This document shows, one piece after another, positions 56,064 to 59,633 of a stretch of 64,000 nucleotides of DNA; the stretch's first letter is position 1; each line of letters begins with the position of its first letter. The position numbers were made by a program, and so were the translations under genes. The notes below the pieces were generated by a model, which did not search any database, was not told the origin of the DNA, and saw only the letters and a list, made by a program, of their open reading frames with translations. The stretch covers positions 800,001 to 864,000 of the forward strand of contig CM000430.1 of assembly GCA_000165345.1 (NCBI GenBank), given 5' to 3'.

Positions 56064-59000
56064 ATGGAAAGCATATCTGAGGAACTAATTAAATTGCTTT
56101 CAAGAGAAGATTTGGAGGATGCAATAAGAAGGCTAAATTCAGAAGTTTCAGAGTTGAGAGATGAGGTTAAATTCTGGAGATGTAGAGCAGAAGCAAGTTC
56201 AAAGGAACAAGGAAAAGTACTTATTAGAAGTAGCATCTCTGAAGAAATGTTAAATGAGTTAAATAACTTAGCAGGTAAAATGGATATATTGAAGATTGCG
56301 GATGATGGGGTTAACAAAGAAAATAAGGAAGATTCTGATTCAATTAGTAACAGAAAATCCATTCCAAAGCCATTTGCTGTTGCAACTGGTGTTCCAGGTG
56401 TTCCTGCTACTGCTACTACTGCTTCTGCTACTGCTACTACTGATACTGATGCTCCTGCTGCTCCTGCTCCTGCTCCTGCTCCTGCTCCTGCTCCTGCTCC
56501 TGCTCCTGCTCCTGCTCCTGCTCCTGCTCCTGCTCCTGCTCCTGCTCCTGCTCCTGCTCCTTCCTCTTCTTCAGCACTTGGCGCTCCAAGTGATTCAAAT
56601 TCACTTCCAGAAACAGAAAATGTCTCAAGAACAGCCATAAATGCAAAGTTGAAGAGCATGATTTTGAAGAAGGCACCACCTAAGATGATGAGTAGGGCAG
56701 ATTTTGTGAAAAAATCCGAACTAAAGAGTAGTAGTGCAGGAATTAGAGGGAATGGTAATTCAGAAGTTTCAGCACAAAGTCAAATAAGTAATGCTATTAA
56801 GAAAGGATCCTCCAGGATTTCTCTTCAATGGGGATGTTTAGCTGAAGAGTATCCAAAATTTGATGTTAGTGTTGAAGAAAACTTATTTAAGGATTACTTT
56901 TCAGAGTTTGAGGAGAAGCTTTCAGTACTAATCAATGATGAGGAGTCTAAAGAAGAATCCAAGCTTGAACTATCTTCCACTTCAGTTTTTTCAAAAGATT
57001 TCCAGGCTGAGGAGTTACAGATTCCAAATGAAAAGTTATTCGAATGGTTTGTTAAGAAGGAAAGTATAAACAGTAAGAAAGTAACAATGATTAATAATCA
57101 AACACCTTCCAACACTGACCAATTAGTTTTAGATCAAGGTAAACTATTAAATATAGGCGACAGATCAATAAATAAAGAAAAGAGTCTTGCAAACAAGAAA
57201 GACCAGAAGCAAACTGAAACAACAGGAAGCGAATCAAGGGCCTGTATTTTCGGATCAAAAACTAGTAGAATGCTCCAAATCACAATAAACTACTTTAAGA
57301 AGAAGTTACCAAAAAATCAACAAAAAAATTTAGATTTCTTCAAAAAGTCTATTCTACAGTGTACTTTAGACAAAGAAGGAGTAAATTTATTGTTGGAAAC
57401 AGTTCCTGATCCTTCTGAAAATGCTGTCAAATATGAAGTTTGGAAGGAATGTGTAACAAGTGTTGAAAAATATCTGGAAAATAATTCAAGAGAAACTTTA
57501 TTTGAAGAGGAGGAGTTTGTTTACTTTTTATCTAGAATTCCAAACCTATCTAAAAGACTTGAATGCATGATTTTGAGATCATCATTTGAACAATTATACT
57601 TAGAGTCACTTAAATGGATTGAGGAAAAGATTCGGGGACTAGAACTCATTTTAAATCATCAAAGACTTCCTTTACTTTTCAAGGCTGTAGTAGATTCAAG
57701 AAATATTTTAAACAGTAAATTAGGGAAAGAGAATCAGCAAGAGCCTGACAAAGTCAAATTTATCCCCTTATCATCTTTGAAAAAGCTTCAAAGTTTAAAA
57801 AGTCCAAATATCCAAGGAAAGACTCTGCTTAATTTTATAAGTTCTATTGTTGGTGAGATTTTTACAACAGAGGAAATTTCAATAATTAAAAAATCTTCTG
57901 AGAAAAACATTACTATGGTTTATACAATGGTAACAGATTTAATATTCTCTTGGCTTGAATTAAGGGATGGATCAGAAAACCTTGTTTTCTCTACAGAGAA
58001 TCATTCTATTAAAGAGGGAATAACAGAGTATAGTGATGAATTCCATAATATTATGAAATTGTTCTACTCTGAAAAGTACAGCCAAATGATTAAGTTGTGC
58101 AGCTCCTTTAGAAGGATGCTAAAGCTTTATGTTGCTTCTTGTTACTACTTTGGGGATATTTCCACATTTCTTCCAATTGGAGCAAAGTCAATTCAGAGAA
58201 AGCATGATCTTTTCGAGACATTATTTGAGTTTATTAGCAAATATAATGTAGCCTTAAAACAAGAAACAGCCAAAGAAGGCGACCAGACTTCTCCTAAAAG
58301 CGTAGAAAATACTCCCAGGGAAAATTCAAAGAAACTATTTACTTCAACCAATACCAGTGCCAGGAGACTTTCTCATATAAACGACATGAAGAATATCCTA
58401 AATCCCGAAATTAACTCTAAACCTAGGGAATTCTCTGCTAAAAATATAAATATCAATGCAAAACCCAAAACTAATATACAGCAATTATTTGCAAAATCCA
58501 TTGTAAGAGAGCTGAATTTAAAGCCTCTATTCAATAAGAATAATGAAAACAGAATTGATAGACATGTTAGTTTTTCGGATGGAAAATCTGAAACTTTCAG
58601 TAATAATAGCAACGGTGTTGCTGCTGATTTGACAAATGATTCTGATAAAATAACAGAAAAAGATGCAATTTCAGGTAAATCAAAAACAAAAGTTGAAACC
58701 AGCAACTCCATTTTATCGGAGAACATTGAAGAAACAGTGGCCTTATCATTAGAGCCTTTATATGGAAGTAATCAAGAAACCAGTAATAAAAGTTCAGCCA
58801 TACAAGTAAGTGAACAGGGCCGTTTAGGAAAGAGATTCTCTATTCTGGAACTTTCTAAAGAAGCTAAAGAAATTCTCTCAAGAAATAGTGATAACACTTT
58901 CAACATGAATTTGAGTTCATCTTTCGATGATGATGTTTCACTTGACGATGATGATGATAATGAAACTATTGCACTTTCATCTCCTTCTTATACTCGGGTT

Positions 59001-59633
59001 TTAGATATCTCTACTATGTTAGACTCTAAAATTGCTCAAGATGAGGAATTCTGTAACACAATTTCAACTAAATTGGAGAAGGATAGCACTAGGAAGAAAG
59101 TAGTAATTATGGCAGAAGACTACGAATCTCCTGTCAGAAATAATACAAAGTTTAATAGAAGGCAATCAATCAGAAGAATGTGCCAAATTGCAACATATCT
59201 TGATAATAGTGGATATAGTGATGAGATTGAAGAAGCTAATGATGATCTAAATAACACCTTATCCAAATATAAGTCTCCAATGGTTCCTCGTAAAGCATCT
59301 AATCATTCTTATCATATTAGTTCTTCTCCATTTTCTTCTGGAACAGAAAATAGTCAGGAAGTGAACTTGGAATATGATCAAGAATTTGAAAATGATAACA
59401 GTAAAACATGTGTATTAAGTGATATACTTGAAATTAGTAACCCTTTGGATGATTTAAAAAAACCTAATGTTAACAAAGAGAATAATACAATTATTCACAG
59501 CTCTAATCACTTAAACCAGTTACAAAATATAAATACTAATTCCAAAGGATCTTCTGAATATTCACCACAGAAAATCACTTTCACAAGAAAATCTGGAAGA
59601 TTTGGAGGTACTTTGTCTCCCCCTTATAATTAA
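56064..59633 (+). CDS. Formin-like protein: N-terminal coiled-coil, an (Ala-Pro)25 FH1-like repeat, and an FH2-like domain
   Basis: ATG at 56064. The (GCTCCT)n tandem at 56449-56562 encodes (AP)25. Downstream sequence fits the FH2 pattern: the lasso region SRISLQWGCL...EENLFKDYFSEFEE; SKTSRMLQITINYFK; PDPSENAVKYEVWKE; ETLFEEEEFVYFLSRIPNLSKRLECMILRSSFEQ (matching L.E.EqF...l..iP.l..Rl....fk..Fe); and KFIPLSSLKKLQSLKSPNIQGKTLLNFI (matching GFkL.sL.KL.dtKS.d.k.TLLhyl). The call rests on recalled consensus, not a search. Confidence 0.5.
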   Translation: MESISEELIKLLSREDLEDAIRRLNSEVSELRDEVKFWRCRAEASSKEQGKVLIRSSISEEMLNELNNLAGKMDILKIADDGVNKENKEDSDSISNRKSIPKPFAVATGVPGVPATATTASATATTDTDAPAAPAPAPAPAPAPAPAPAPAPAPAPAPAPAPAPAPSSSSALGAPSDSNSLPETENVSRTAINAKLKSMILKKAPPKMMSRADFVKKSELKSSSAGIRGNGNSEVSAQSQISNAIKKGSSRISLQWGCLAEEYPKFDVSVEENLFKDYFSEFEEKLSVLINDEESKEESKLELSSTSVFSKDFQAEELQIPNEKLFEWFVKKESINSKKVTMINNQTPSNTDQLVLDQGKLLNIGDRSINKEKSLANKKDQKQTETTGSESRACIFGSKTSRMLQITINYFKKKLPKNQQKNLDFFKKSILQCTLDKEGVNLLLETVPDPSENAVKYEVWKECVTSVEKYLENNSRETLFEEEEFVYFLSRIPNLSKRLECMILRSSFEQLYLESLKWIEEKIRGLELILNHQRLPLLFKAVVDSRNILNSKLGKENQQEPDKVKFIPLSSLKKLQSLKSPNIQGKTLLNFISSIVGEIFTTEEISIIKKSSEKNITMVYTMVTDLIFSWLELRDGSENLVFSTENHSIKEGITEYSDEFHNIMKLFYSEKYSQMIKLCSSFRRMLKLYVASCYYFGDISTFLPIGAKSIQRKHDLFETLFEFISKYNVALKQETAKEGDQTSPKSVENTPRENSKKLFTSTNTSARRLSHINDMKNILNPEINSKPREFSAKNININAKPKTNIQQLFAKSIVRELNLKPLFNKNNENRIDRHVSFSDGKSETFSNNSNGVAADLTNDSDKITEKDAISGKSKTKVETSNSILSENIEETVALSLEPLYGSNQETSNKSSAIQVSEQGRLGKRFSILELSKEAKEILSRNSDNTFNMNLSSSFDDDVSLDDDDDNETIALSSPSYTRVLDISTMLDSKIAQDEEFCNTISTKLEKDSTRKKVVIMAEDYESPVRNNTKFNRRQSIRRMCQIATYLDNSGYSDEIEEANDDLNNTLSKYKSPMVPRKASNHSYHISSSPFSSGTENSQEVNLEYDQEFENDNSKTCVLSDILEISNPLDDLKKPNVNKENNTIIHSSNHLNQLQNINTNSKGSSEYSPQKITFTRKSGRFGGTLSPPYN
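56449..56562 (+). repeat. Perfect (GCTCCT)n hexamer tandem (about 19 copies plus degenerate flanks) encoding (Ala-Pro)n
   Basis: Visible directly in the sequence. It explains the spurious poly-Leu and (EQ)n ORFs in other frames (56296..56640, 56437..56679, 55961..56659-). Confidence 0.85.

Follow-up and report, generated by a model that had tools for sequence, protein, structure and literature searches.

The stretch of DNA analysed here (64,000 nucleotides of contig CM000430.1, assembly GCA_000165345.1, positions 800,001 to 864,000; referred to as the window) contains cgd2_3850, the gene for the Cryptosporidium parvum formin CpFormin4, in which a perfect array of GCTCCT hexamers encodes an alternating Ala-Pro tract upstream of the FH2 domain. 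An initial annotation, made from the sequence alone, placed this tract where a canonical formin would have its FH1 region, and the locus raises the question of whether the tract stands in for FH1 or is a repeat of another kind. We think it probable, taking the interpretation as a whole, that CpFormin4 is a MISFIT-class formin in which a slippage-expanded tract is a tolerated spacer within a disordered linker, and not an FH1 replacement.

The gene and its GCTCCT array

The long open reading frame (ORF) has in-frame stops directly upstream, and its start position and flanking genes are the same in C. hominis and C. meleagridis, the order in the window and in both of these species being an unnamed gene, the FH2 gene and a B-box zinc-finger gene. 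Four nested primers have been published for a variable-number tandem repeat (VNTR) at cgd2_3850 (XM_626569, chromosome II; PMC4746124 Table 1), each of which has one exact match in the window, flanking the array, and the published repeat unit, CTGCTC (PMC4746124), is the GCTCCT repeat read in a different register. Because all four primers and the repeat unit match exactly, the ORF is C. parvum cgd2_3850 and the array is the published typing marker. Bushell et al. (2009) described four C. parvum formins, CpFormin1 (cgd6_4150), CpFormin2 (cgd8_2450), CpFormin3 (cgd8_1500) and CpFormin4 (cgd2_3850) (PMC2715856), and the gene is thus already known, both as an annotated FH2 protein and under the name given to it in 2009. 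The exact 1189-amino acid sequence was not found in the protein collection searched, where a C. hominis protein with the annotation 'Formin Homology 2 Domain containing protein' is 97% identical to it; further orthologues are present in at least eight more Cryptosporidium lineages, with the lowest identity (38%) in C. muris.

Several orthologues carry a different public name, 'RNA recognition motif(-containing protein)', including those of C. hominis TU502 (XP_665855, P0001), C. ubiquitum, C. ryanae and C. bovis (among them P0004, P0007 and P0008). We rejected this identity for CpFormin4, for which Pfam gives FH2 only and no RNA recognition motif at E<=10, and the name looks like a propagated mis-annotation. 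Also set aside as repeat shadows of the long, conserved plus-strand ORF were two minus-strand ORFs over the array (55961-56659 and 56437-56679) and a poly-Leu ORF in the +2 frame (56296-56640).

The perfect hexamer array encoding Ala-Pro is real, as seen both by exact count and with Tandem Repeats Finder, which reports a period-6 array at 56458-56561 with 17.3 copies, a score of 208 and 100% matches, the top-scoring tandem repeat of the whole window. It exceeds by far what is expected by chance in DNA with a G+C content of 29%, as in this window. The exact count is 17 hexamers, or (Ala-Pro)17, preceded by Ala-Pro-Ala at residues 130-132; the initial figures of (Ala-Pro)25 and of 19 or more hexamers were over-counts.

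The length polymorphism between isolates that the initial annotation anticipated is borne out, but it had already been published as the cgd2_3850 VNTR (PMC4746124), and C. parvum isolates have been typed with this repeat since 2016. Six alleles were reported among 104 calf isolates from Spain (151, 163, 181, 193, 199 and 205 bp), with the 193-bp allele accounting for 81% of them (PMC4746124), and the marker has also been applied to sheep isolates (PMC4866762). In silico, the inner amplicon of the window (56372-56582) is 211 bp long with 17 units; all six published alleles differ from it by multiples of 6 and, computed from this reference, correspond to 7, 9, 12, 14, 15 and 16 units. The allele found here exceeds the longest published one by one unit, and the unit number spans about 2.4-fold (7-17) among viable isolates. 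The locus is written as 'cgd2_3850' in the abstract, methods and primer table of PMC4746124 and as 'Cgd3_3850' in its results, tables 2-3 and discussion; since the primers fall in cgd2_3850, 'Cgd3' is a typographical slip, and one that could mislead database look-ups.

The FH2 domain and its relatives

CpFormin4 is a genuine formin by four independent tests, in which the domain profile, a family profile, the predicted fold and the key residues all agree, and the FH2 identity proposed initially is upheld. The match to Pfam PF02181 has a score of 63.1 bits (E=3.3e-17), where the gathering cut-off is 34.8, and it spans positions 53-371 of the 372 in the profile. A profile of residues 196-745, built from Cryptosporidium sequences only, was used for an exhaustive HMMER search, which identified 78 relatives at E<=1e-3; a 27-sequence FH2-core alignment drawn from these gave a family profile (A3). 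Searched against the sequences of the PDB, this profile matches 19 solved FH2 chains (E=1e-31 to 2.9e-10), including those of mDia1 (1e-31), Toxoplasma Formin 1 (TgFormin1; 2.7e-28), Bni1p (7e-19) and Cdc12 (7e-11), as well as FMNL3, DAAM1 and INF2. The full-length protein (phmmer) and the 10-orthologue profile found only low-complexity AP matches among PDB sequences, or nothing relevant; a genus-only profile is too narrow for such a search. AlphaFold2 prediction of residues 380-745 with the 27-sequence alignment gave a predicted local distance difference test score (pLDDT) of 84.9 and a predicted template modelling score (pTM) of 0.80, an earlier run with six close orthologues (pLDDT 38.8) having been discarded. 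When the model was compared with the PDB using Foldseek, all of the top 31 matches were FH2 domains (E 7e-9 to 2.6e-5, template modelling (TM) scores 0.52-0.69), and the next match had E=0.4.

Conservation was assessed across an alignment of 10 orthologous Cryptosporidium sequences. The residues corresponding to the actin-binding knob Ile845 and post Lys994 of mDia1, Ile406 and Lys579, are both invariant among these, and Ile occupies the knob column in 14 of 15 family members. Residue N547 aligns with the Asn of the GN motif, the Gly of which is Arg here. Two FH2 blocks singled out in the initial annotation, LFEEEEFVYFLSRIPNLSKRLECM and KFIPLSSLKKLQSLKSPNIQGKTLLNF, align to mDia1 as claimed; its placement of FH2 at about residues 200-620 has to be revised, with the lasso motif at about 251-258 and the Pfam-aligned core at 371-727. 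The domain appears intact and looks competent to bind actin.

A Trp lies 84-159 residues upstream of the knob Ile in all 15 family members examined, in 14 of them within a motif of the [LVI]x[LV]xW or L-x-W type, such as RISLQW256 in CpFormin4, RVQLLW in Lankesteria, and KLITLHW and LVSLYW in more distant members. The motif resembles 'L.W', the canonical consensus for the formin lasso. Within the CpFormin4 motif, R251, S253, L254, W256, G257 and C258 are invariant among the orthologues, and the spacing of 150 residues from lasso to knob is unusually long. W256 is thus probably the lasso Trp, in keeping with the original proposal as far as motif comparison goes; the Pfam model gives no confirmation, as its alignment to CpFormin4 leaves out the first ~50 profile positions and hence the lasso, and in nine relatives positions 1-25 are aligned in none. 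A second Trp motif, EKLFEWFVK, has W328 and F329 invariant among the orthologues and has LExxF.KK equivalents in relatives, for example KVLEYLFKKQ and SMIEVYFKRR.

Outside Cryptosporidium, the best matches are, in order, an assembly protein, gregarine proteins (Lankesteria, Gregarina, Porospora), a Vitrella FH2 protein and Plasmodium MISFIT. The MISFIT matches are four Plasmodium clusters, each bearing the name 'nuclear formin-like protein (MISFIT)', with E=3.9e-16 to 2.8e-13 against the Cryptosporidium-only profile, and in pairwise comparison the FH2 core is 28% identical to that of P. ovale MISFIT over 278 residues (E=2e-17). No protein of FRM1 or FRM2 size is present among the 78 matches at E<=1e-3, none of which is longer than 1659 residues. 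The published phylogeny agrees, with MISFIT closest to CpFormin4, and MISFIT lacks FH1, unlike Formin 1 and Formin 2 (PMC2715856). By sequence, MISFIT is a closer relative of the CpFormin4 FH2 than apicomplexan Formin 1 or 2 is, and CpFormin4 would accordingly be classed as a MISFIT-class formin-like protein.

Two relatives have additional matches outside FH2. The Vitrella protein (P0016, 1422 residues) matches the UPF1 1B domain in its C-terminal part (E=1.3e-9), and a weak Mis12-like match precedes the FH2 of the closest unnamed relative (P0012). Such partners are unusual for an FH2 domain and hint at nuclear or RNA-related roles of the class.

Origin and role of the Ala-Pro tract

The Ala-Pro tract is absent from seven of the nine other species compared (chipmunk genotype I, C. 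ubiquitum, C. canis, C. ryanae, C. bovis, C. muris and one further lineage), and the two closest, C. hominis and C. meleagridis, have 1-4 imperfect units. C. hominis encodes APAPTPAP with the sequence GCTCCT GCTCCT ACTCCT GCTCCT, and C. meleagridis has a single GCTCCT; the DNA flanks are nearly identical in both, and the pure 17-unit array is found in the C. parvum sequence only. Array and flanks together look like a textbook case of an uninterrupted microsatellite lengthened by slippage. One C. hominis protein (KAL3129643, P0011) has an 18-residue (54-bp) duplication, TDAPAPTPASATATATTT, at residues ~118-135, the same spot as the hexamer expansion, and C. hominis isolates differ by this duplication, independently of the C. 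parvum hexamers. Linker length is therefore unstable in C. parvum and C. hominis alike, by way of different repeat units.

The region around the tract (residues ~85-195) is poorly conserved and compositionally disordered: disorder-promoting residues make up 84-92% of residues 101-200, which align poorly across the genus. Among PDB sequences, the tract matches only Ala-Pro-rich stretches, including segments that serve as linkers or extensions in myosin light chain 1/3 and in the E2 chains of 2-oxoacid dehydrogenase. At the N-terminal side, residues 1-49 contain no Pro or Gly, and all eight a/d positions of a heptad pattern are hydrophobic (L17, I21, L24, V28, L31, V35, W38 and A42), with L17, L24, W38 and A42 (four of the eight core positions) invariant among the orthologues. 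The coiled coil proposed for this region is thus plausible, and the heptad pattern is present; it is short, at about four heptads, and residues 17-42 would form a coiled coil by this pattern.

Nowhere in CpFormin4 is there a run of three or more Pro, Pro-Pro pairs occurring only at residues 205-206 and 1186-1187, and the Plasmodium MISFITs are likewise without runs of three or more. The first of these pairs lies in a conserved motif, within which A204, P205, P206, S210, A212, F214 and K216 are invariant among the orthologues (KSMILKKAPPKMMSRADFVK), and the Leu-Lys-Lys part varies (ILKKA becomes ILKRA in C. ryanae, and C. muris has PIGKALPPPPS). The overlapping segment KSMILKKAPPK had been described as WH2-like and as following immediately after the repeat. 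It starts 30 residues past the repeat, there is no match to the WH2 model (Pfam PF02205) in CpFormin4 at E<=10, and the residues that are invariant are A-P-P and S..A.F.K, not LKK. Relatives have KAPP(P)K-type units in the 30-60 residues preceding the lasso Trp, for example SKAPPRSKAPPKR, PPPKAPPKAPPPG, KAPPPKAPPAAKAPPGAK and AAPKAPPKAKAK, and KKAPPK sits 50 residues upstream of W256 in CpFormin4. Because it matches these units in both motif and position, KAPPK is probably one surviving unit of a short, KAPP(P)K-type FH1.

The most likely explanation for these observations is that, in the lineage of C. parvum, slippage during replication would have enlarged a seed of one to four units, still visible in the sister species, with (Ala-Pro)17 being the in-frame translation of a pure GCTCCT microsatellite. 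The linker would bridge the conserved N-terminal coiled-coil-like helix and the module comprising the KAPPK motif, the lasso and FH2, and the tract within it would be no more than an extended spacer, variable in length and tolerated, the FH1 remnant of the family being presumably the single invariant KAPPK about 50 residues upstream of the lasso Trp. We infer a tolerated variable spacer because the tract is non-conserved, polymorphic and located in a disordered linker, because its PDB matches are linkers or extensions, and because apicomplexan profilin is described in a 2025 review as sequestering actin, with no classical cooperation with formins (PMC12713339); the slippage origin, the near-neutrality and the vestigial nature of KAPPK are suggested by the comparisons described above.

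Several points weigh against this interpretation. Neutrality is deduced solely from polymorphism and lack of conservation, and the predominance of one allele (193 bp, 14 units) among the Spanish calf isolates could reflect selection or population structure. The lasso assignment derives from a short motif, with no profile or structure behind it, and in the literature we found no binding, localisation or expression data for CpFormin4. In addition, the tract occupies the FH1 slot, and several Cryptosporidium species carry stubs of three to five prolines (P3-P5) in the same alignment gap, for example PPLPPPPCLP and PPPPP, so that a weak FH1-like role of the tract is conceivable. Because these stubs fall in the same gap, the linker is the degenerate FH1 region of this formin family. 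The proposal that the tract substitutes for FH1 is thus fair with respect to position and unsupported with respect to replacement, as the tract is absent from seven of nine species and varies in length among viable isolates, and the MISFIT class has no FH1.

Ala-Pro repeats are extended and stiff, and one alternative is that the tract is a functional, non-specific, semi-rigid polyproline-II-like spacer whose length sets the distance from the dimerising or anchoring N-terminal helix to the FH2 ring, such that repeat number tunes activity or reach and is visible to selection. The location of the tract between two conserved modules is consistent with this, as are the roles of AP-rich segments in solved proteins as linkers or extensions and the dominance of a single allele (81%) in the field sample. 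Sister species nonetheless function with 0-4 units, the whole linker differs in both length and sequence across the genus, and viable isolates have anything from 7 to 17 units, and we therefore regard such a functional spacer as unlikely. Profilin ligands need runs of about five or more Pro, and binding of profilin by (AP)n is very unlikely. A surrogate FH1, in which the tract binds Cryptosporidium profilin-actin and feeds FH2 in place of lost poly-proline tracks, would account for its location ahead of the lasso, in the FH1 slot that holds P3-P5 stubs in other species, and for the lack of any other proline run in the protein; it is very hard to reconcile with a tract that has no contiguous prolines and is unconserved even in C. 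hominis or C. meleagridis, with the absence of FH1 from MISFIT-class proteins (PMC2715856), and with the reported sequestration of actin by apicomplexan profilin without formin cooperation (PMC12713339), and we give it little credence.

A different type of explanation is that the copy number of 17 is an assembly or sequencing artefact and that the true allele lies within the published range. Pure repeats are easily miscounted in assemblies, and the 211-bp amplicon is one unit above the longest published allele (205 bp); single reads can, however, span the 102-bp array, which is in frame with its flanks intact, and the published survey represents one region of Spain, with longer alleles expected elsewhere, such that there is only a slight chance of a miscount. 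A tolerated spacer expanded by slippage remains the interpretation that we favour. There is a similarly slim prospect that, in a formin lineage whose poly-proline FH1 was lost, the recently expanded (AP)n in the FH1 slot has acquired a function, either as a weak polyproline-II ligand of the divergent apicomplexan profilin or as a stiff spacer setting the reach of FH2; if so, C. parvum isolates would differ in the tuning of actin assembly through natural variation between 7 and 17 units. The typing marker would also be a functional polymorphism if actin assembly depended on the tract, and nothing here suggests that it does.

As it stands, the finding is real but ordinary, that of a known gene carrying a known VNTR, and it matters little. 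Three aspects are apparently not in the literature consulted: that what the marker encodes is an Ala-Pro tract within the linker of a formin, that the invariant KAPPK looks like the one remaining unit of an FH1 of the KAPP(P)K type, as in related alveolate formins, and that CpFormin4 keeps both actin-contact residues, unlike MISFIT, and may still nucleate actin.

Feature coordinates, other repeats and known systems

The features discussed are collected in Table 1. Beyond FH2, Pfam reports no domain in the C-terminal 445 residues, within which there are genus-conserved islands: LNLKPLFNK, SILELSKEAKEILSR, NETIALSSPSYTR, FNRRQSIRRMCQIA and, at the C-terminus, RKSGRFGGTLSPP. Within this low-complexity half, FNRRQSIRR (residues 1030-1038; 59151-59177) is invariant in the genus and holds an Arg-Arg-x-Ser sequence. 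Such sequences are typical of sites for basophilic kinases of the PKA, PKG and CDPK types. MISFIT is described as having a basic, DAD-like C-terminal region (PMC2715856), and a regulatory role of FNRRQSIRR is conceivable.

Table 1. Positions in the window of cgd2_3850 and of the features described in the text.
Feature	Coordinates	Strand	Residues	Basis or remark
CpFormin4 / cgd2_3850 ORF	56064..59633	+	1189 aa + stop	Single exon, complete, uninterrupted
N-terminal heptad region, short putative coiled coil, ~4 heptads	56112..56189	+	17-42	a/d pattern
Outer amplicon of cgd2_3850 VNTR assay, 301 bp	56288..56588	+		Primer matches
VNTR primer F1	56288-56312			Ramo et al. 2016, PMC4746124
VNTR primer F2	56372-56391			Ramo et al. 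2016, PMC4746124
VNTR primer R2	56563-56582			Ramo et al. 2016, PMC4746124
VNTR primer R1	56568-56588			Ramo et al. 2016, PMC4746124
Lead-in, imperfect GCT/ACT/TCT/GAT codon run encoding low-complexity PATATTASATATTDTDAPA	56403..56459	+		Variable or absent in orthologues
VNTR, 17 perfect GCTCCT hexamers, (Ala-Pro)17	56460..56561	+	133-166	Exact count
Conserved motif KKAPPKMMSRADFVK	56667..56711	+	202-216	Probable single vestigial FH1-type proline unit
Lasso-like motif RISLQWGC with Trp256	56814..56837	+	251-258	Motif comparison
Motif EKLFEWFVK with Trp328	57033..57059	+	324-332	Common to relatives as LExxF.KK
FH2 core (knob, coiled-coil, post)	57174..58244	+	371-727	Pfam PF02181
Ile406 codon, mDia1 Ile845 (knob, actin-binding)	57279..57281	+	406	hmmalign to A3 profile
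Lys579 codon, mDia1 Lys994 (post, actin-binding)	57798..57800	+	579	hmmalign
C-terminal half, mostly low-complexity	58299..59630	+	746-1189	No Pfam match

Further repeats are present elsewhere in the window. The only other 100%-perfect one is (TAA)14.7 at 54546-54589, within an upstream gene (ORF 54253-55332, plus strand) that has no Pfam match, where it is read in frame as AAT codons to give 14 consecutive Asn; this locus, too, may be polymorphic in length. Imperfect ATC, ACTACA and CAACTACAA arrays at 45171-45395 lie in ORF 44615-45802 (plus strand), which matches the Pfam family 'New_glue' weakly and below threshold (24.1 bits; cut-off 31) and is possibly a Thr/Gln-rich, mucin-like protein. 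An imperfect (ATC)29 at 49963-50050 is in the N-terminal part of ORF 49220-50692 (plus strand), the C-terminus of which contains an NLI-interacting-factor-like (FCP/SCP-type) phosphatase domain (E=9e-49), and GAG/GAA-rich arrays with periods of 9, 18 and 30 bases at 19064-19253 encode an acidic Glu/Lys-rich repeat in a very large, 3964-residue ORF (13906-25800, plus strand).

In the two papers that use the cgd2_3850 marker (PMC4746124, PMC4866762) the locus is purely a marker, and the encoded Ala-Pro tract is not discussed. The nearest compositional parallels to the tract are the inter-domain linkers of the 2-oxoacid dehydrogenase E2 chains and the N-terminal extension of myosin essential light chain 1/3, in which alternating or near-alternating Ala-Pro connects or extends domains. 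The likeness is one of composition and not of homology, and those linkers are conserved within their families, whereas the CpFormin4 tract is restricted to one species and varies among isolates. The rudimentary proline region of CpFormin4 recalls the FH1 of apicomplexan Formin 1, described as 'much reduced' (PMC12713339), although Formin 1 belongs to a different class, FRM1 being much longer and having N-terminal TPR repeats.

With the canonical FH1-FH2 formins (mDia1, DAAM1, FMNL3, Bni1p, Cdc12 and INF2), CpFormin4 has in common the FH2 fold (TM 0.52-0.69), the knob Ile, the post Lys, the Asn of the GN motif and a lasso-like Trp motif. It differs from them in being only ~18% identical, in having no GBD, DID or DAD detected by Pfam, and in lacking poly-proline tracks, instead of which it has a single KAPPK unit and the non-conserved (AP)17. 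Plasmodium MISFIT is the closest named FH2 relative outside Cryptosporidium, the gregarines and the chromerids; both proteins are without a poly-proline FH1, and the motifs E[DE]EEF and YFGD..F.P are common to the two. MISFIT itself is ~1600 residues long, with FH2 near its C-terminus, and it has His at the column of the post Lys and a knob-Ile region that does not align, whereas CpFormin4 keeps both actin-contact residues, suggesting that CpFormin4 is a more canonical and probably actin-competent member of the class.

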